From the NCBI GenBank assembly GCA_046293175.1, contig JBKBPM010000001.1, forward strand, positions 511,847 to 575,846: a stretch of 64,000 bases of DNA, in the 5' to 3' direction. This document shows, one piece after another, positions 12,323 through 42,396 of the stretch. Source of the DNA: Minisyncoccia bacterium. Lineage in GTDB: Bacteria > Patescibacteriota > Minisyncoccia > Phycocordibacterales > UBA918. The first letter of the stretch is position 1; each line of letters begins with the position of its first letter. The position numbers and the translations under genes are program-made. The notes beneath the pieces are model-generated. The model saw only the letters and a list, made by a program, of their open reading frames with translations, made no database searches and had not been told where the DNA came from.

Positions 12323-12404
12323 GCCTCGGTGGCGGAATTGGTATACGCGCACGACTCAAAATCGTGTATCGCAAGGTGTGAGGGTTCGACCCCCTCCCGA
12401 GGCA
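12323..12404 (+). tRNA. tRNA-Leu(CAA)
   Basis: Hand fold. Acceptor GCCTCGG/CCGAGGC, anticodon stem CACGA/TCGTG with loop CTCAAAA, long variable arm, T-arm GAGGG-TTCGACC-CCCTC, discriminator A. Confidence 0.85.
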
Positions 12405-12439
12405 CAATGAATCCCTGTTTAGGGGTTTTGTGTCTCGGA

Positions 12440-12575
12440 GAACATGACTAGATCTCATGTTCATGAGTGGGTCGAAGAGGTTGCCAGCTATTTTTGAGTT
12501 TAGCGAAAAAATAACGACAACCTGTACCGATTCTGTAAGAATCAAGTCCCCCCTCCGGCACCATAGCAAATACAA
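12440..12575 (+). repeat. tRNA-associated structured repeat, copy G (downstream of tRNA-Leu-CAA)
   Basis: gaagaggttgccagctatttttgag...gacaacctgtaccgattctgtaagaatcaagtcccccctccggcacca. Homologous to the copies at 17935, 27423(-), 51522 and 58037(-). Stems covary between copies (ggttgcc/gacaacc here, ccttgcc/gacaagg in copy A). It ends in a diverged copy of the tRNA-Leu 3' end. Flanked by 22-nt hairpin direct repeats at 12408-12430 and 12575-12598. Confidence 0.6.
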
Positions 12576-15222: not shown

Positions 15223-16212
15223 TTAACACGAGACATTTACCTCTCCTCTTCGACCACCCCAATCACAATGCACGTGCCCTGACCCCGAATACATCATTAT
15301 AAAACTAGCTCCAACCGCCCGACATACTCTGACAATATCACATCGACCAGCTCGTCCACCAGCAGAAGTAAGATCAAGCGCTACGCCAGAAGAATGACGA
15401 GAACCGTTACCCCCACGGCTGCACGGCCGAGCAACTGTTCCTTGCTGCTGGCATCGAGGGCACTGATCCCAAAGTTCCGTTTGTCTGGCATCAGATCGGT
15501 ATGAACTGGTAACGCTAAGACTAGGCAGAGATCTTTGCATGGCTGTAAAGCGACCGGCGACGTAAGCTGTCGCCCGGTGATTGCCTTGTCCAGGTATACT
15601 TACCAAAGAACTCTCATTAAAACTACAATTACTTCCGACGGCAGGATTTGGTATAGGCATCCCCGCCGGACCAGGAATGGTGGCTGGAATAATTGTTACA
15701 TCCTCACCTCCTGGAATAGATTCATTTGGTTCAAACGTCACTGGGGTAAACGAGCCCGGGGTTGGTGTCGGCTGAGAATAACACTCCACCGTACTCCAAT
15801 AAAGCCAACCAGTCACCTGCCCATTTGGTATTTGCCCCTCTGAGCCTTCGCGTCCAACCAAACCGCGCATAATGGTGTCAACAATCAGCCACGCTGCCAG
15901 CACAATAATAAGCCCAATAAATGCATTTACAAATCGGTTCTTCGCTTCATCGAGTGCATGATGATTGCCGCCGGAGGTGACGAGGCCAAAACCAGCGTAG
16001 GCGAGGATAACCGCGAAGATAATAAAAAGAAATCCAATGAGCCAGGTGATGAGGCCGTTGGCAAGATGCACTAAGTTACAGGCTGAACAGTCTGGACCAG
16101 AACAGCCGGCGTATTCCGCCAGTGAGGTTTGAGCAATGGCCACGTCCGGCACCACCATTGGTAGAATGAGAGTAAAACTGAAGATAGCTAAAAATAGTCC
16201 GAACCGCATCAT
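15223..16212 (-). CDS. TrbC/VirB2-like two-TM pilin-type domain fused to M15-family (VanY-like) peptidoglycan peptidase
   Basis: 329 aa. Signal peptide, Cys-rich segment, then TM1-GG(N)xxxxExAK-TM2 (AYAGFGLVTSGGNHHALDEAKNR...IGLIIVLAAWLIV). Pro/Thr linker QPTPTPGSFTPVTFEPNESIPG. The C-terminus has SSYRSDARQTELW ... HSSGVALDL ... HVHCDW, matching the LAS/M15 zinc peptidase pattern (SxxR, HxxGxAxD, H). Confidence 0.6.
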   Translation of the reverse strand: MMRFGLFLAIFSFTLILPMVVPDVAIAQTSLAEYAGCSGPDCSACNLVHLANGLITWLIGFLFIIFAVILAYAGFGLVTSGGNHHALDEAKNRFVNAFIGLIIVLAAWLIVDTIMRGLVGREGSEGQIPNGQVTGWLYWSTVECYSQPTPTPGSFTPVTFEPNESIPGGEDVTIIPATIPGPAGMPIPNPAVGSNCSFNESSLVSIPGQGNHRATAYVAGRFTAMQRSLPSLSVTSSYRSDARQTELWDQCPRCQQQGTVARPCSRGGNGSRHSSGVALDLTSAGGRAGRCDIVRVCRAVGASFIMMYSGSGHVHCDWGGRRGEVNVSC

Positions 16213-16730: not shown

Positions 16731-17663
16731 TTACATCCTACCACCATAGGCACGGACACAAGACGCTGCCCGATTATTGCAACCAGGACAAGTCCAGTCG
16801 CGATAACCACGTGTACGAACTAACCGCACCATCATTTGTATATTACACTGCGCACGCATACAATTTGATCGCCAATCATTACAAGCTCCGGGCGGCGGAT
16901 TGCTTCTCCACGTGGTTCGTGTTATCTGAAACGTACCACAGGCAGTTGAATTAGAACCTGGGTGTGTTTCATTATACGGTGGAGTATTTGGATTACCAGA
17001 ACTCTCAGTCATCGCAATGCAAGACATTACATTTGCCTGTACTGGTGTTAAGCCCGCTGCTTGTAGTGCCGCTACACTACAAGCACTATTTGAAGGACTA
17101 CACTGCACACCGCCACCTGGTCCACCGCCAGAGCCACCGCCAGATAAACTGCCGCCAGTAGCACCGGTAATATAGGTGTAGCTACCTGGTATAACCACCA
17201 CACGATTACCAGGAATCTCAGTATTTGGATCAAAAGTTTGTGGAGTAAAAGTCCCTGGGTCCGGGTTTGGTTGTGCCACACAACTCAGTTCATTCCACAT
17301 CCCAAGTCGTGTCTCACCATCAAGGAGTAACATGCGCATACCGGTGTCAATGAGAAGCCAGCCGGCGAGGACAATCACATAGCCAATAATCATGTTACTA
17401 ATCATTGATTTGGCATCTTCTTTGGCATGGCGATTGCCACCAGAGGTCACAAGCTTAAAGCCAGCGTAGACGATAATAATGGCAGCGACCGTACCAAGAA
17501 TGAGCACGAGCCAAGAAATCACCCGATTGACGAGTTCTACCACATAACACATCTGACAAGCCGGTTCACCCTCACCCCCACAAGGAACAAGACCCGCTGC
17601 ATAGGAAAGCAGTGGCACTGCTACGAGCACCAAAAACAATACACTGCCCCAAAATCGCTTCAT
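16731..17663 (-). CDS. TrbC/VirB2-like two-TM pilin-type domain fused to SLT-type lytic transglycosylase (VirB1-like)
   Basis: 310 aa. The N-terminal 150 aa are about 45% identical to the N-domain of 15223..16212 (VYAGFKLVTSGGNRHAKEDAKSM...IGYVIVLAGWLLIDTGMRML; linker QPNPDPGTFTPQTFDPNTEIPG). Gly-rich spacer. The C-terminus CIAMTESSGNPNTPP...STACGTFQI matches the SLT catalytic Glu-Ser ... GLMQ-type motif. Confidence 0.6.
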   Translation of the reverse strand: MKRFWGSVLFLVLVAVPLLSYAAGLVPCGGEGEPACQMCYVVELVNRVISWLVLILGTVAAIIIVYAGFKLVTSGGNRHAKEDAKSMISNMIIGYVIVLAGWLLIDTGMRMLLLDGETRLGMWNELSCVAQPNPDPGTFTPQTFDPNTEIPGNRVVVIPGSYTYITGATGGSLSGGGSGGGPGGGVQCSPSNSACSVAALQAAGLTPVQANVMSCIAMTESSGNPNTPPYNETHPGSNSTACGTFQITRTTWRSNPPPGACNDWRSNCMRAQCNIQMMVRLVRTRGYRDWTCPGCNNRAASCVRAYGGRM

Positions 17664-17767: not shown

Positions 17768-17850
17768 GCGTCGGTACTCAAGTGGTCAACGAGGGGGGAC
17801 TGTAAATCCCCTGGCATCTGCCTACGAAGGTTCGAATCCCTCCCGGCGCA
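17768..17850 (+). tRNA. tRNA-Tyr(GTA)
   Basis: Acceptor GCGTCGG/CCGGCGC (one G-U pair), anticodon stem GGGGA/TCCCC with loop CTGTAAA, long variable arm GGCATCTGCC, T-loop TTCGAAT, discriminator A. Confidence 0.75.
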
Positions 17851-17895
17851 CACCAAAAAAACAGCTCAGGCAAATGCCTGGGCGATTTTTATTGT

Positions 17896-18029
17896 GTGCC
17901 GGGAAGTAAAGTGTGTGGGACACACTTTACGCGGGATTCGAAGACCTTGCCTGCTATTTTGTGAGGTACGAAACAAAATAGTGACAAGGTGTACTGAAGC
18001 TGTAAGCTTCGAATCCCTCCCGGCGCACA
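17896..18029 (+). repeat. tRNA-associated structured repeat, copy A, with a perfect 24-nt duplicate of the tRNA-Tyr 3' end
   Basis: Hairpin gtaaagtgtgt-ggga-cacactttac, then the core gattcgaagaccttgcctgctattttgtgaggtacgaaacaaaatagtgacaaggtgtactgaagctgtaagc, then gcttcgaatccctcccggcgcaca (18006-18029). The last segment matches tRNA-Tyr 17829-17852 at 22/24 positions. Confidence 0.65.
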
Positions 18030-27422: not shown

Positions 27423-27515
27423 GAAACCAAAGGCGGGATTCGAACTTTACAAGTTCAGTACATGTTGTCGCTCTTTTACAGAAAAGAGCTGGCAACCTTT
27501 TCGAATCCCTTGTCA
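27423..27515 (-). repeat. tRNA-associated structured repeat, copy E (downstream of tRNA-Cys), ending in a diverged copy of the tRNA-Cys 3' end
   Basis: Minus-strand read: aaggttgccagctcttttctgtaaaagagcgacaacatgtactgaacttgtaaagttcgaatcccgcctttggtttca. The plus-strand tgaaaccaaaggcgggattcgaac matches tgagaccgaggcgggattcgaac (the tRNA-Cys 3' end) at 21/24 positions. Confidence 0.6.
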
Positions 27516-27550
27516 AAATAAAACACCCTCAATCGGGTACTTTATTATTG

Positions 27551-27624
27551 AGACCGAGGCGGGATTCGAACCCGCGCGTGGCGGTTTTGCAAACCGCAGT
27601 GTTAACCGCTTCACCACTCGGTCT
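27551..27624 (-). tRNA. tRNA-Cys(GCA)
   Basis: Acceptor GACCGAG/CTCGGTC, anticodon stem GCGGT/ACCGC with loop TTGCAAA, T-arm GCGGG-TTCGAAT-CCCGC, discriminator U. Confidence 0.8.
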
Positions 27625-27716: not shown

Positions 27717-28211
27717 ATGGCAAAAAAACGTACCTGGACAGAAGCCCAATTAAGACAAGCAGTACATGATTCAAAGAGTATTCGCCAAGTTCTCATTATT
27801 TTGGGACTTATCCCTGCTGGAGGCAACTACCAACACGTTGGACAAACTATAAAAAAGCTTGGGATAGATGACTCACATTTTACAGGTATGGGTTGGCGAA
27901 GTGGACGAACTTTTGATTTTGTCCCTCAGCGAACACTTGAATCTATTCTTCAAAAAAACTCCGATTTTCAAAGTTTCAAATTAAAAAAACGGTTATTTCG
28001 CGAAGGTTTAAAACAACCAAAGTGCGAAATGTGCGGCTGGGCAGAAATATCAAATGATGGTAGGATTCCAGTCGAGCTCGACCACATCAATGGAGATCAC
28101 CGTGATAATCGGCTAGAGAATCTGAGAATTCTATGCCCCAATTGTCACAGTCTTCAACCAACACATCGGGGTCGAAATCAAAAGAAACCGCCGGGGTGGC
28201 GAAATCGGTAG
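27717..28211 (+). CDS. HNH endonuclease
   Basis: 164 aa. HNH motif CEMCGWAE...ELDHINGDHRDNRLENLRILCPNCH. The gene is AT-rich and its last 22 nt overlap the 5' end of tRNA-Leu(TAA). Confidence 0.75.
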   Translation: MAKKRTWTEAQLRQAVHDSKSIRQVLIILGLIPAGGNYQHVGQTIKKLGIDDSHFTGMGWRSGRTFDFVPQRTLESILQKNSDFQSFKLKKRLFREGLKQPKCEMCGWAEISNDGRIPVELDHINGDHRDNRLENLRILCPNCHSLQPTHRGRNQKKPPGWRNR

Positions 28212-28276
28212 ACGCGCAACACTTAAAATGTTGTGAGCGAAAGCTCTTATGGGTTCAAGTCCCATTCCCGGCACCA
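28190..28276 (+). tRNA. tRNA-Leu(TAA), CCA encoded
   Basis: Acceptor GCCGGGG/TCCCGGC, anticodon stem CAACA/TGTTG with loop CTTAAAA, long variable arm, T-arm ATGGG-TTCAAGT-CCCAT, A73, CCA. Confidence 0.85.
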
Positions 28277-28278
28277 TA

Positions 28279-28316
28279 ACAAAACACTCCATGGATATGG
28301 AGTGTTTTGTTATTTT
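28279..28316. terminator. perfect hairpin terminator (copy 1 of a duplicated terminator)
   Basis: aacaaaacactccat-ggat-atggagtgttttgtt followed by attttct. The arms are identical to the hairpin at 29094-29126. Confidence 0.7.
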
Positions 28317-28678: not shown

Positions 28679-29095
28679 ATGACCACCCCAGCATTCGCCT
28701 TCGGTGACGGGATCACTCCTCCTACCCCTTTTGTCCTCCTCGAACAGATTATTGAAGATCGCGGCAGTCGCTATAGCGTGAGCTACGGCCACGTACAGAG
28801 TCGCGAGGATATCAAAACCTTTCTCAAAACCCTCAAAAAAGACAAGGCCTATATGCGCGCCGATCACAACAGCTTCGCTGCTCGTATCGAACACGAAGGA
28901 GTGATCTATGAAACCAAAAACGATGATGGTGAGACTGGCGCCGGGATGGTGATTCTCCGCATGCTCCAAAAACACGATGTCAGATGCGGGGTCGTCTGTG
29001 TAACCCGCTGGTTCGGTGGCATCAAGCTGATGGGTGACCGGTTTAAACATATCCAAGACGCCACCATCATCGCTATCAACCACATGCAGTCATAA
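28679..29095 (+). CDS. YigZ/IMPACT-family (UPF0029) N-domain protein
   Basis: 138 aa from the internal Met. GSRYSVSYGHV...DDGETGAGMVILRML...VVCVTRWFGGIKLMG matches the IMPACT/YigZ core. Confidence 0.7.
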   Translation: MTTPAFAFGDGITPPTPFVLLEQIIEDRGSRYSVSYGHVQSREDIKTFLKTLKKDKAYMRADHNSFAARIEHEGVIYETKNDDGETGAGMVILRMLQKHDVRCGVVCVTRWFGGIKLMGDRFKHIQDATIIAINHMQS

Positions 29096-29130
29096 CAAAA
29101 CACTCCATCTAGATGGAGTGTTTTGTATTT
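29094..29130. terminator. perfect hairpin terminator (copy 2 of the duplicated terminator)
   Basis: aacaaaacactccat-ctag-atggagtgttttgt followed by attttgtt. Shared by yigZ-like (+) and trhO (-). Confidence 0.7.
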
Positions 29131-29135
29131 TGTTA

Positions 29136-33934: not shown

Positions 33935-34312
33935 CTAGTTACCAAGAGTTGGCACCTCTGGAGTAGTGTCCAGTGAATCTTCAAGACCAAGACCATTTGA
34001 GAGAATGTTCACAATACCCCAAAAGGCGAGAATAACTACATATCCAGCAATGGCGTACATGATGAGACTGCGGCCATTTTCCTTGGCTTCTTCGTTTGCA
34101 CCACCACGAATGAAGTAGTTAAACATTCCCCACACAAACATGAGGAAACCGATGGCCAGAATAAATGGAATAACATAGCCACTAATGAAAGCAAGGATGG
34201 CTGTCATTGCGCCACCAATATCTCCACCATCGCCGCCATTGAGTACAGCTGCAGAGGCTGGAAAAGCCACCGCGAGGCTAGCCAATACAACAAGAGAAAG
34301 GAATGATTTCAT
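33935..34312 (-). CDS. TrbC/VirB2-like small two-TM pilin-type protein (paralogue 4)
   Basis: 125 aa. Signal peptide AFPASA, then FIRGGANEEAKENGRSLIMYAIAGYVVILAFWGIV matching the GGNxxAKEDAK-TM2 core of the 15223 and 16731 N-domains. Confidence 0.6.
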   Translation of the reverse strand: MKSFLSLVVLASLAVAFPASAAVLNGGDGGDIGGAMTAILAFISGYVIPFILAIGFLMFVWGMFNYFIRGGANEEAKENGRSLIMYAIAGYVVILAFWGIVNILSNGLGLEDSLDTTPEVPTLGN

Positions 34313-34477
34313 ATGATTCTAAATACGATAAAAGAAGCGGATATGTATGCTTCATATATTATTATACACGAAAAGTAAGATTTTTAAAGGGTTTCAATCC
34401 CGGGTGTGCAAAAGTTACATGAACAACAGTAATTAATCACAAGTCTTCAAAAAAAGAACAGTAGCGAGGCGCGAAAG

Positions 34478-34585
34478 CGAAGAAATGTGAGATGTGAAGA
34501 AACACGGGGCGTTTCTGCAAGACTCATTGAGCATTTTGCGAATGAAATGATGCAAAAGGCCAATGAGTGGACAGTTTCTGTAAGA
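34478..34585 (+). repeat. structured repeat, copy C (subfamily 2, orphan; between pilin-like genes)
   Basis: gtgagatgtgaagaaacacggggcgtttctgcaagactcattgagcattttgcgaatgaaatgatgcaaaaggccaatgagtggacagtttctgtaag. About 80% identical to copy D at 41943-42030. Hairpins gaaac/gtttc, actcattg/caatgagt and ttttgc/gcaaaa. Confidence 0.6.
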
Positions 34586-34651
34586 AACTTTTGTATGATG
34601 AACGTTTCTGATGCGAACCGCAACCAAGCTAATGACTTTTTATGGAGACTT

Positions 34652-34921: not shown

Positions 34922-35308
34922 TTAGGCGGCGAAACTGTCAACGGTATTCCTGATAATTTCTGCAATAGCAACCGCTGCAAGAATGAGTACTCCGCCGATG
35001 ATTGCGTAGGTGAAGGTGGTGGTGGCTTCTTCGATCTGTCTCGGATTACCCTGCGCGGTTACGTACTTAAAGCCAGCCAAGATGATAAAGAGAACAATAA
35101 TCGGAATCATGAGCACCATAAAGATGTTGAGGATGGCGATAAGCAGTTCCTCGATAGAGTTTACGCGGAGTGGGTTATCGAGAGTGACTGGTTCAATCGA
35201 AGGAGTACCACCTGTAGTTTGCTGAGCCTGCACATAGGTAGTTAAAAAACCAAAAAAGAGAGTGGGAAGACACATAACCAAGAAACCAATTTTTTGAAGT
35301 ATACTCAT
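34922..35308 (-). CDS. TrbC/VirB2-like small two-TM pilin-type protein (paralogue 3)
   Basis: 128 aa. Signal peptide, then ILAGFKYVTAQGNPRQIEEATTTFTYAIIGGVLILAAVAI, which aligns with VYAGFKLVTSGGNRHAKEDAKSM... of the 16731 gene. Confidence 0.6.
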   Translation of the reverse strand: MSILQKIGFLVMCLPTLFFGFLTTYVQAQQTTGGTPSIEPVTLDNPLRVNSIEELLIAILNIFMVLMIPIIVLFIILAGFKYVTAQGNPRQIEEATTTFTYAIIGGVLILAAVAIAEIIRNTVDSFAA

Positions 35309-37252: not shown

Positions 37253-37459
37253 AAAGCGCCCGTCGGGCGCTTTTTGTACATTCTTTTCAAAACAGATGGA
37301 TAGCGAGGCGTGAGAAAAAATTATGAGGAGGTGTCAGAGGAAGTCAGAAATTGCTTCAAGAGCAAGGCGACAAACAAAAAAAGCGACGAGGTGTACTGGT
37401 TTGTACTTTGAGTCGCTTTTTTGTGCAGTCAACGCTGCTATTGGACAATTTATGACTTT

Positions 37460-39931: not shown

Positions 39932-40209
39932 AACAGAACAGCGGGTCTTTTAACGATAAATAACGGCATTAGTATAACATAAATTAGAACACATCAACTA
40001 ACCCTATCTCCGTGATTACCTGCGTCGTAATACGTTCACCGTACAATCAAGTACGCCTCGTATTATCGTTCATTGCCTTCTTAGAGTAGCTGTCCAATCA
40101 TTGGTCTATTTGCTTCGCAAAGCTCCCAAATATACACAATGAGTCTTGCGAAAAGTACCCCATACTTTTCTCAACTAGGATACAGAGTCATTTGTAGCGT
40201 TCTAAGCAA

Positions 40210-41942: not shown

Positions 41943-42030
41943 GTGAGAAAAGCGTGGGACGCTTTTTGCAAGACTCATTGAGTGATTTTATGAGTGCGAA
42001 CGAAATAAAATAACCAATGAGTAGACAGCC
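41943..42030 (+). repeat. structured repeat, copy D (subfamily 2, orphan; rpsA upstream region)
   Basis: gtgagaaaagcgtgggacgctttttgcaagactcattgagtgattttatgagtgcgaacgaaataaaataaccaatgagtagacagcctctgtagga. Covaries with copy C: aagcg/cgctt here versus gaaac/gtttc in C, and attttat/ataaaat here versus ttttgc/gcaaaa in C. Confidence 0.6.
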
Positions 42031-42396
42031 TCTGTAGGAGGATTGCTCGCGAAAGTTCGCCATTGTCGGCCAGAAAGGCCTCTGTGGCTCACTTTACATA
42101 TATATTGTTTTCTGGTATATTCCCCGCACCGAAAGGTATTAATAGTTTCCTAGCGACACACGTTAACCCTGAGCTTATGGGTATGGCCGGTGAATAATTC
42201 TACGAATTTTTCACTTTGCGAAATGGTAGCTCAGACGCGTGTCGTCGGAATAAATAAGTAAGCATAAGACTTACAGAATCGAGACAGATTCGCGAAGTGA
42301 CGAAATTTCAAATGAGCCGTACTTTGCGGTACGGCGAGTGCCGAAATTGATGACACGACAAAGAAGCTGGCCGATTGTGGAAGTCGCTACAGTTAT

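Follow-up and report, generated by a model that had tools for sequence, protein, structure and literature searches.

In E. coli, the tyrT locus carries downstream repeats of 178 bp, each of which contains the last ~19 nucleotides (nt) of tRNA-Tyr. Integrases that cross over in the T loop of a tRNA gene are expected to leave a block of identity extending from the T loop to the 3' end of the gene. In Patescibacteria, group I introns of more than 200 nt, assigned to Rfam family RF00028, have been reported at position 35/36 of the anticodon loop, inside single tRNA genes (PMC13011429). Here, we analyze a family of structured repeats found beside tRNA genes in a 64,000-nt stretch of a Minisyncoccia bacterium chromosome (contig JBKBPM010000001.1, positions 511,847 to 575,846; hereafter, the window). 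A preliminary description of the window had proposed these repeats as a miniature mobile element or as remnants of attachment sites. Based on sequence comparison, we tentatively favor another reading, which could well prove wrong: the copies would be selected structured RNA modules of ~90-170 nt that sit on partial tRNA duplications and are gained and lost between relatives. As far as sampled, the family is specific to Patescibacteria.

Relatives were sought with the core motif of the element in bacterial and archaeal contigs representing one genome per species. At least 117 stretches of DNA matched, against a chance expectation of ~17 according to our own arithmetic from pattern degeneracy and database size; among 2.9 million viral contigs, the core motif had no match. 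We aligned 106 core sequences from relatives and built a covariance model from that alignment; the fetched loci of relatives carrying the core motif are designated by L-numbers. The core folds as a three-way junction of a closing helix, P0, and two further helices, P2 and P3, with AAA/AGA and UGUACU as the linkers between them. A conserved CCW/GA internal loop interrupts the long hairpin P2, and P3 is a 5-bp hairpin with the loop UGUAA; an accessory hairpin, P1, is often present, with a GGG(A/G) loop in a subset of copies. The unpaired bases AAA/AGA, CCW/GA, UGUACU and the UGUAA loop are near-invariant in the core. Positions of the motif, being inside the search pattern, are invariant in the 106-sequence alignment by ascertainment; outside the pattern, several unpaired positions, A11, A14 and C21 among them, are conserved at 90% or more, and the conserved set takes in the AAA/AGA linker and a portion of the CCW side of the P2 internal loop. 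A long form of the element, found at six loci (L007, L009, L038, L055, L102 and L108), carries in the P3 loop an extra structured domain of ~85 nt that begins with GCARAGCTT...CTTGAAC and ends with ...GTTCAAGTAA.

The 106-core alignment backs four helices, and both sides change in 21 of the 26 pairs. Across these sequences, 89.5% of the pairing cells hold a pair, compared with 35-48% after the 3' partners were shifted by 1-3 columns, and the observed covariation score was reached by none of 500 shuffles. All seven pairs of P0 covary. G-U pairs outnumber A-C combinations 47 to 20 in P2 and P3; the departure from 1:1 has a p of ~0.001 (normal approximation), a figure that overstates the evidence owing to the kinship of the sequences. 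This excess is consistent with folding of the given strand, and the model scores copy A of the window at 97 bits in the sense orientation and at 14 bits in the antisense orientation. The compensatory changes quoted in the preliminary description (ccttgcc/gacaagg against ggttgcc/gacaacc, the P2b arms, and aagcg/cgctt against gaaac/gtttc) are real, and the conserved structure deduced from them is borne out by the covariation as that of a strand-specific family. Because loops and junctions are deeply conserved while the stems covary, the copies appear to be selected as a folded single strand, most simply RNA.

The two strands of P0 connect the fold to the adjoining tRNA. The 3' strand is T-loop-like (UUCGAAUCC) and, in most copies, is literally nt 54-73 of the tRNA located 10-45 nt upstream. 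Opposite it, the 5' strand has the reverse-complementary sequence of this segment and follows the T-loop variant of its cognate tRNA (GGGATTCGAA, GGACTTGAA, GAATCGAA and GGACTCGAA). With one strand being a tRNA segment and the other its complement, the RNA would be capped by a helix of T-stem/acceptor-stem sequence. In 32 copies, pairing between the inverted and direct segments is predicted from T54 to about N72, fading past the N73 discriminator. P0 is also kept in copy B of the window, an orphan, and in its counterpart in L089, where GCGGACC/GGTTCGC and CGAACC/GGTTCG, respectively, differ by a single base and retain pairing. In our view, the T-loop-like strand of P0 belongs to the fold itself, which would explain the association with tRNA genes, since a sequence of this kind, 9-12 nt long, is common to almost every tRNA gene.

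Copy A, located downstream of tRNA-Tyr, is complete and has a predicted minimum free energy of -71.6 kcal/mol, compared with -36.6 for shuffled sequences (z = -9.7). Nucleotides 54-73 of the tRNA plus two further bases (17831-17852) form the first copy of a direct repeat, and the second, an exact 22-nt copy running from T54 to two bases beyond the discriminator, forms the 3' end of the element (18008-18029). Its 5' side consists of the segment IR-a (17894-17904), complementary to the acceptor 3' strand of tRNA-Tyr, the P1 hairpin with a GGG loop (17906-17930), and the segment IR-b (17933-17942, GGGATTCGAA), complementary to the T loop and T stem. P2 (17945-17989), the UGUACU linker (17990-17995) and P3 with the UGUAA loop (17996-18010) follow. 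Copy A is one closed fold because its two tRNA-derived segments pair with each other. The terminator-like hairpin between the tRNA and the element is the center of a long palindrome that extends from the tRNA 3' segment on one side to the inverted copy on the other; this palindrome, centered on the terminator loop, is imperfect in copy A and perfect in L047.

Based on the covariance model, we detected eight copies in the window, namely A, E, G, B, Ser, C, D and H (Table 1). All eight copies of the preliminary description are present where it had placed them; H, with a marginal model score, was not among them and is also recognizable by eye beside C and D. The core that it attributed to every copy was recovered by the model in A, E, G, B, Ser, C and D; copy F, which escapes the model, keeps a P2-like hairpin but has a different middle part, with an extra hairpin and with neither UGUACUGA nor P3. 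By chance, 0.01 occurrences of the 23-nt motif GACAANNTGTACYGAWNNTGTAA would be expected in the window, which contains four. The reported duplications of the tRNA ends were also found, with longest exact repeats of 22 nt for Tyr, 23 for Ser, 19 for Glu, 15 for Cys and 8 for Leu. In addition, every tRNA-linked copy in the window has an 8-12-nt exact inverted copy of the T-loop region of its own tRNA. The distance of 100-170 nt between tRNA and element given earlier needs correction: the element starts 10-45 nt downstream of the tRNA, and it is the core motif alone that lies 80-131 nt downstream.

Table 1. Location of the copies of the element in the window and of features adjoining copy A; bits are covariance-model scores unless otherwise stated.
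Feature	Position	Strand	Evidence and remarks
tRNA-Tyr(GTA)	17768..17851	+	ARAGORN; Rfam tRNA 49.6 bits
Terminator-like hairpin between tRNA-Tyr and copy A	17864..17883	+	Terminator-like on both strands
Copy A, complete	17894..18029	+	97.4 bits; fold; exact repeat
Copy G, after tRNA-Leu(CAA) (12323-12405)	12434..12563	+	76.1 bits
Copy E, after tRNA-Cys (27550-27623, - strand)	27423..27549	-	Core 27431-27511; 83.6 bits
Ser copy, after tRNA-Ser(CGA) (58170-58258, - strand)	58037..58164	-	Core 58054-58144; 52.2 bits
Copy F, after tRNA-Glu(CTC) (58490-58562)	58606..58740	+	tRNA-derived ends; not detected by the model
Copy B, orphan (no tRNA nearby), 3' of ftsZ	51453..51603	+	67.4 bits
Copy C	34462..34599	+	P2 CTCATTGAG/CCAATGAG, linker UGGACAG; 29.9 bits
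Copy D, C subfamily, ~350 nt upstream of the ribosomal protein S1 gene	41943..42053	+	18.4 bits (E = 0.025)
Copy H, C/D subfamily, between a 128-aa open reading frame and gyrA	40065..40175	-	Model match 40065-40157; 13 bits (E = 0.55, marginal)

The remaining copies vary around this arrangement. Copy G has P1 at 12440-12462, P2 at 12479-12522 and P3 at 12529-12543, a decayed tRNA 3' copy, and terminator-like hairpins on both sides; its IR-b segment, GGGTCGAA at 12469-12476, matches the unusual T loop TTCGACCC of tRNA-Leu(CAA). The Ser copy follows its tRNA directly, without an intervening terminator, which makes co-transcription plausible at this locus; it carries a 12-nt inverted and a 23-nt direct copy of the tRNA-Ser 3' end, has a fold z of -5.0, and ends 25 nt ahead of the start codon of a P-type ATPase gene. 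The ends of copy F are an inverted GAATCGAA, matching TTCGATTC of tRNA-Glu, and a direct repeat of 19 nt; F is either a divergent relative or a separate subfamily, and an F-like variant is also present 3' of tRNA-Leu(TAA) in L065. In copy B, the P0 strands GCGGACC (51453-51459) and GGTTCGC (51597-51603) enclose, in order, a CUUCCUA-loop hairpin, P1 with a GGGA loop, a GCAAGA linker, P2, UGUACU and P3. The CUUCCUA-loop hairpin is located at 51467-51487 in the window and at 7133-7150 in L089, and its stem stays paired though changed (TCGCCC/GGGCGA against CCGCTC/GAGCGG). A further region, 37295-37425 (+), carries the AGCGAGGCG-GAGAAA motif that also occurs ahead of copies B and C, plus GCGACGAGGTGTACTGG. 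We rejected it as another family member, given that it has these two motifs in common yet the covariance model finds nothing there; it could represent the decayed remains of a copy joined to a terminator.

The matches listed come nearly all from metagenome-assembled genomes (MAGs) of Patescibacteria, labeled Kaiserbacteria, Nomurabacteria, Vogelbacteria, Paceibacteria/Parcubacteria, Minisyncoccia or 'Saccharibacteria'; one archaeal match to the motif lacks the remainder of the element. Typical copies adjoining tRNA genes were also seen in MAGs labeled Patiriisocius (L029, L035, L059 and L108) and Acidimicrobiales (L039). These contigs are probably misbinned Patescibacteria, and since such contigs carry the element, it could be used as a marker in binning. 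In 100 fetched loci, the covariance model identified 151 copies, ~40 more than the motif alone. Among the matches listed, 86 of 133 copies are located 66-390 nt (mostly 80-140) 3' of a tRNA on the same strand and 11 are located 32-132 nt 5' of one; the remainder are at contig ends or are orphans. In the same set, copies adjoin tRNAs of ~16 isotypes. This common core supports the earlier argument that integrases each specific to a single tRNA do not explain the family.

The boundaries of the tRNA duplication are not alike. Among the matches listed, the left edge of the repeat falls at T54/T55 in 37 of the 43 copies with a well-preserved repeat, and its right edge lies 0-6 nt beyond the tRNA end in 27 of the 43. 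Most of the other repeats run 30-70 nt or more further, through the terminator into the next tandem unit, so that repeat length is bimodal, at ~20 nt or 50-90 nt. A mirror class, exemplified by L048, L030, L010, L060 and L071, has the opposite arrangement: P1-P2-P3 is joined without a gap to a perfect duplicate of tRNA nt 1-53 (with identity over up to 54 nt), the T-loop piece that follows P3 pairs with a complement located just downstream, and the intact tRNA comes ~45-55 nt later. Taken together, both classes show that the core always abuts tRNA position 53/54 and that the T-loop piece is always paired. The inverted 5' copy of the tRNA, the mirror class and the spread across Patescibacteria are additions to the preliminary description, whose interpretation of the duplicate as a target-site duplication does not fit a left edge pinned at T54/T55, a variable right edge and an inverted copy that pairs with the duplicate. 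Group I introns were observed inside tRNAs just upstream of copies in L055 (1640-1716) and L007; the L055 intron is a truncated match to RF00028 (E = 1.6e-4), consistent with the published 35/36 introns (PMC13011429).

The sequences retrieved that are nearest to the window are 80-85% identical to it and come from MAGs labeled Parcubacteria, Kaiserbacteria, Patescibacteria group or Saccharibacteria. The only other contig found to encode a neighboring protein is 100% identical to the window and is uninformative on polymorphism. Copy B is 83% identical to its positional ortholog in L089, compared with 33% and 54% in the flanking spacers, and for copy E and its L065 ortholog, identity is 94.5%, compared with 60% in the spacer; the genes neighboring these orthologous copies are ~80-85% identical. 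Among the matches listed, the nearest relative of a dispersed copy was located in its own genome in only 3 of 55 cases, and identical copies were found in tandem only. This conservation in place, exceeding that of the spacers, together with the lack of recent dispersed copies, argues for selection on the copies. Additionally, at tRNA-Tyr, copy A corresponds to the P1 of one L095 copy joined to the P2 of the other, a mosaic that indicates recombination between units.

We therefore read the element as neither an active miniature transposon nor a relic of an integrase attachment site. In the scheme that we propose for the selected RNA modules, each module would be transcribed at the 3' end of an extended transcript of the tRNA or of a neighboring gene. 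P0 would clamp the junction, and the conserved loops would be presented to a conserved partner, either protein or RNA. The tRNA-like helix may let RNase P, RNase Z or the CCA-adding enzyme define or protect the ends of the module. New copies would arise rarely, through recombination at the shared T-loop sequence, an event that would leave tRNA nt 54-73 on the 3' side of the core or tRNA nt 1-53 on its 5' side, always beside an intact tRNA. Copies would then amplify locally in tandem, be kept tRNA-like by gene conversion, and later be lost.

Several observations weigh against this reading. We found no sigma-70-like promoter ahead of A, G, B, Ser and F in the two regions scanned, and terminator-like hairpins flank A, G and E on both sides, so that transcription of these three would depend on read-through. 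A GGG-loop P1 was recovered in only about one-fifth of the copies by a crude hairpin scan, which often caught the terminator instead. The element is not a strict tRNA mimic. Its ends are predicted to pair into an acceptor-like stem using the tRNA 3' strand, but a T stem of 5 bp with an open T loop is absent, the T-loop bases being paired, either with the inverted copy or inside P3; the discriminator is engaged in pairing in ~50% of the copies instead of being free, and no CCA is encoded after the tRNA copy. In copy A, moreover, the 5' strand differs at two positions from the tRNA's own 5' strand. Inverted copies that are perfect over 21-23 nt and form one long palindrome with the terminator (L047 and L032) look like the product of DNA-level templating rather than of selection. 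Tandem arrays, with three identical 142-nt units in L109 and at least four units in L013, a unit nested inside the P1 loop of another copy in L108, and a unit apparently located between the P2 and the linker of another copy in L104, as read from the printed sequence, are also expected of a mobile element. So are the differences at four loci in the complement of copies between the window and L065, a relative ~80-85% identical to it: the L065 site orthologous to copy C is empty, with ~37 nt of intergenic sequence against ~265 nt in the window; tRNA-Lys has an element in L065 and none in the window; tRNA-Leu(TAA) has its F-like element in L065 only; and tRNA-Cys has two tandem units in L065 and one in the window. 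The empty-site comparison suggested in the preliminary description thus did reveal filled and empty sites, with a duplicate that does not behave as a target-site duplication of fixed length.

Other differences in arrangement were noted around these tRNA genes. Relative to its flanks, the tRNA-Leu(TAG)-tRNA-Lys block has opposite orientations in the window and in L065 (6560-7000), tRNA-Leu(CAA) is on the opposite strand in L116, and two nearly identical palindromic terminator-like sequences (28275-28315 and 29091-29131) are 88-91% identical to each other.

An explanation that we consider unlikely, while taking it seriously, is that of a non-autonomous mobile element whose target would be position 53/54, either in the DNA that encodes the T loop or in the T loop of tRNA transcripts. 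The UCGAA-containing 5' segment would be an internal guide pairing with the near-universal TTCGA(A/G)TCC, and only insertions that leave an intact adjoining tRNA would survive, which would produce the two polarity classes observed. The pinning of the tRNA junction at T54/T55, the start of mirror-class copies right after nt 53 and the range of isotypes among the matches listed agree with this proposal, as do the nested copies, the tandem arrays, the site differences with L065 and the position of copies between terminators with no promoter found. It accords less well with the scarcity of recent dispersed copies among the matches listed, with conservation in place well above that of adjacent spacers, and with the absence of viral matches in our search. 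In addition, no fixed-length duplication is present, the sole transposase among the scanned open reading frames (ORFs) of the window is of the IS1595 type with unrelated ends, and an inverted copy that matches the acceptor strand of each tRNA is not portable between sites. Of the mobility proposed in the preliminary description, loose gain and loss, tandem amplification and nesting were observed; the dispersed copies are old and kept in place, and no integrase or reverse transcriptase was found among the scanned ORFs. We give a much smaller, indeed highly improbable, share to relics of integrase-mediated elements at tRNA genes (attL/attR, or cis-mobilizable elements), in which the core would be the arm of an attachment site. 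Such a relic would account for the direct repeat that spans from a crossover point in the T loop to the tRNA 3' end, and for the displaced L065 copy after tRNA-Leu(TAA), which resembles the window's version of the tRNA 3' end and not that of L065 itself. Nevertheless, the same core is present at ~16 tRNA types among the matches listed, and the element side of T54 is a variable, covarying strand of P3 instead of an inverted, T-stem-like core-type site beyond the crossover. The copies read have ~110 nt between the repeats and no longer insert, no integrase was encountered among the scanned ORFs, no arm was matched in phages or viral contigs, and the orphans lack tRNA sequence.

Two further explanations concern what the folded strand itself might do. 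We see a slim chance that the element is a self-processing RNA, a small ribozyme or intron-like insert at 53/54 whose junction catalyzes cleavage or ligation beside the T-loop copy. A compact three-way junction with conserved unpaired positions, a tRNA junction at a single position on both sides (53 and 54), and an optional P3-loop domain typical of the peripheral elements of ribozymes would suit such an activity, and many self-splicing introns are known from the tRNA genes of Patescibacteria (PMC13011429). However, no ribozyme or intron family of Rfam matched at E values up to 10, the strand order of the junction is unlike that of the hammerhead, and the element, at ~80 nt, is far below the size of a group I intron; excision in silico also gave nothing beyond the trivial reconstitution and the unconvincing call described below. 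It is very improbable, in our estimate, that the copies act instead as a structured signal in single-stranded DNA, used for priming, recombination or uptake during replication or natural transformation. Hairpins and strand bias would appear alike in single-stranded DNA, long perfect palindromes centered on the terminator and copies lying between terminators with no promoter found are compatible with it, and DprA and several type IV secretion pilin-like proteins are encoded in the window. On the other side, conserved loops and junctions in a three-way junction are, in our judgment, typical of RNA, and at least one copy, Ser, is within a likely transcript. To our knowledge, there is no precedent for a single-stranded DNA signal tied to tRNA 3' ends, which also counts against this possibility.

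Searches against known families gave no identity for the element. Rfam 15, applied to the whole window at gathering thresholds, returned only the ten tRNAs that ARAGORN also predicts. Relaxed Rfam searches of copies A and B and of the L055 long form produced sub-threshold matches at chance level, none of them reproducible; a 16.5-bit full-length Enterococcus-1 match in one relaxed search of A was gone in a repeat search. No tmRNA was detected in the copy A region, where a weak YrlA match (14 bits, E = 5.1) lay over the tRNA gene itself, and the L055 region gave only a 5-bit tmRNA fragment. In a blastn comparison of the A locus with phage genomes, the tRNA-Tyr part alone matched. Our full-text literature search found no description of the element, the nearest paper being that on group I introns (PMC13011429), and neither integrase, reverse transcriptase nor phage genes were identified among the ~50 larger ORFs covered by the protein scan of the window.

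Specific identities were also tried and discarded. None of the known self-cleaving ribozymes (hammerhead, twister, twister-sister, pistol, hatchet and HDV-like) matched even at E values up to 10; for the hammerhead (CUGA...GAAA), CUGA is not conserved (CCGA in copy G), and the strands of the junction are ordered GAAA, helix, UGUACUGA, helix, none. A group I intron was dismissed given that RF00028 matches only the intron in the upstream tRNA of L055, not the element. As for an interrupted tRNA gene, ARAGORN returned, after in silico removal of the unit, the trivial reconstitution through the direct repeat and one unconvincing call in the mirror-class locus L010. A retroelement primer-binding site, as a reading of the inverted copy, is not consistent with the absence of the complement of CCA; T runs precede GTGCCC... 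in L047. A guide RNA (the omega RNA of TnpB/IscB or a delocalized crRNA) was set aside, with no nuclease gene for it among the scanned ORFs and a 'guide' that is paired with the inverted copy. Finally, in contrast to a miniature inverted-repeat transposable element (MITE), the inverted repeat copies the local tRNA and so varies by site, there is no target duplication of fixed length, and there are no nearly identical dispersed copies.

The window is a chromosome stretch dense with housekeeping genes, including those for SerRS, DprA, topoisomerase I, RelA/SpoT, MiaA, ParB, ClpB, IF-2, RbfA, GyrA, ribosomal protein S1, Pth, FtsA, FtsZ and TrxB, and it also encodes several of the type IV secretion pilin-like proteins typical of Patescibacteria. 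Four of the latter are paralogous (15223-16212, 16731-17663, 33935-34312 and 34922-35308); two of them are fused to cell-wall hydrolase domains (VanY and SLT_3), and copy C sits between two paralogues. The IS1595-family DDE transposase ORF (55161-56027, -) is bracketed by 24-nt inverted repeats at 54077-54100 and 56052-56075, and this ~2-kb unit (54077-56075) also holds an unusual 89-nt tRNA-Ile(TAT) gene (54306-54394); it may be an insertion sequence with a tRNA passenger. An HNH endonuclease ORF (27717-28211, +) is located between tRNA-Cys and tRNA-Leu(TAA), its 3' end overlapping the start of the latter, and may be a free-standing homing-type nuclease within the tRNA cluster.

Patescibacteria are a very large, almost uncultured branch with tiny genomes and strong pressure against non-essential DNA, yet at least eight copies are present in 64 kb. 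If the element functions as an RNA, its family would rank with the phylum's more abundant non-coding RNAs and would hint at a biology of tRNA 3' ends, in processing, quality control or uses outside translation; if selfish, it would be an unusual element that copies its target in both orientations. In either case, partial tRNA copies and palindromes probably disturb the tRNA annotation, assembly and binning of these genomes and may drive local inversions of tRNA blocks between relatives. With the covariance model, further members can be searched for directly. We assign a low probability to the more far-reaching alternatives that the copies are a new class of tRNA-capped RNAs, with at least one per tRNA species, or a new ribozyme that guides its insertion into T loops by base pairing. 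In the former case, RNase P, RNase Z, the CCA-adding enzyme and possibly the cognate aminoacyl-tRNA synthetase would act on the helix, and the junction would dock a Patescibacteria-specific partner. Such a class would amount to a tRNA-like set devoid of anticodons and acting outside translation, e.g., as amino-acid donors or sensors in amino-acid auxotrophs.

Compared with the partial tRNA duplications of attL/attR sites, the element shares an intact tRNA followed nearby by a direct copy of its 3' segment, from the T loop and often to the tRNA end. It differs in having one core for ~16 tRNA types among the matches listed, an inverted copy that pairs, RNA-like covariation, ~110 nt between repeats with no integrase found, and a mirror class that duplicates tRNA nt 1-53. 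The tyrT repeats of E. coli resemble the arrays of L109, L013 and L065 in being tandem 3' units that end in a tRNA 3' copy; those repeats belong to one locus in one species and lack a shared structured core and an inverted copy, whereas the present family is phylum-wide and involves many tRNAs. As in the tRNA-like domain of tmRNA, YrlA, mascRNA and viral tRNA-like structures, the ends pair as an acceptor and T-stem helix, the rest being a different conserved fold; unlike in those RNAs, the T loop is paired, no CCA is encoded, there is no analogue of the D arm, and the helix copies whichever tRNA adjoins instead of having one fixed identity. With REP/BIME, ERIC, Correia, RUP and BOX sequences, the family has in common its multiple intergenic copies with hairpins, often at the 3' ends of transcription units and sometimes nested or in tandem. 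Those repeats have high identity within a genome and a narrow taxonomic range, in contrast to the old copies described here, with divergent stems, conserved loops and orthologous sites in many Patescibacteria lineages, which also sets them apart from MITE families. The group I introns of Patescibacteria (PMC13011429) are likewise extra structured RNAs at tRNA genes of the same phylum, sometimes located just upstream of copies, but the element, at ~80-130 nt, is external to an intact tRNA, adjoins a partial copy at position 53/54 and has no Rfam match. None of these closest known systems joins a phylum-wide conserved junction with direct and inverted copies of the adjacent tRNA, and there is a real chance that, once its function is known, the family will prove to be something new in kind.

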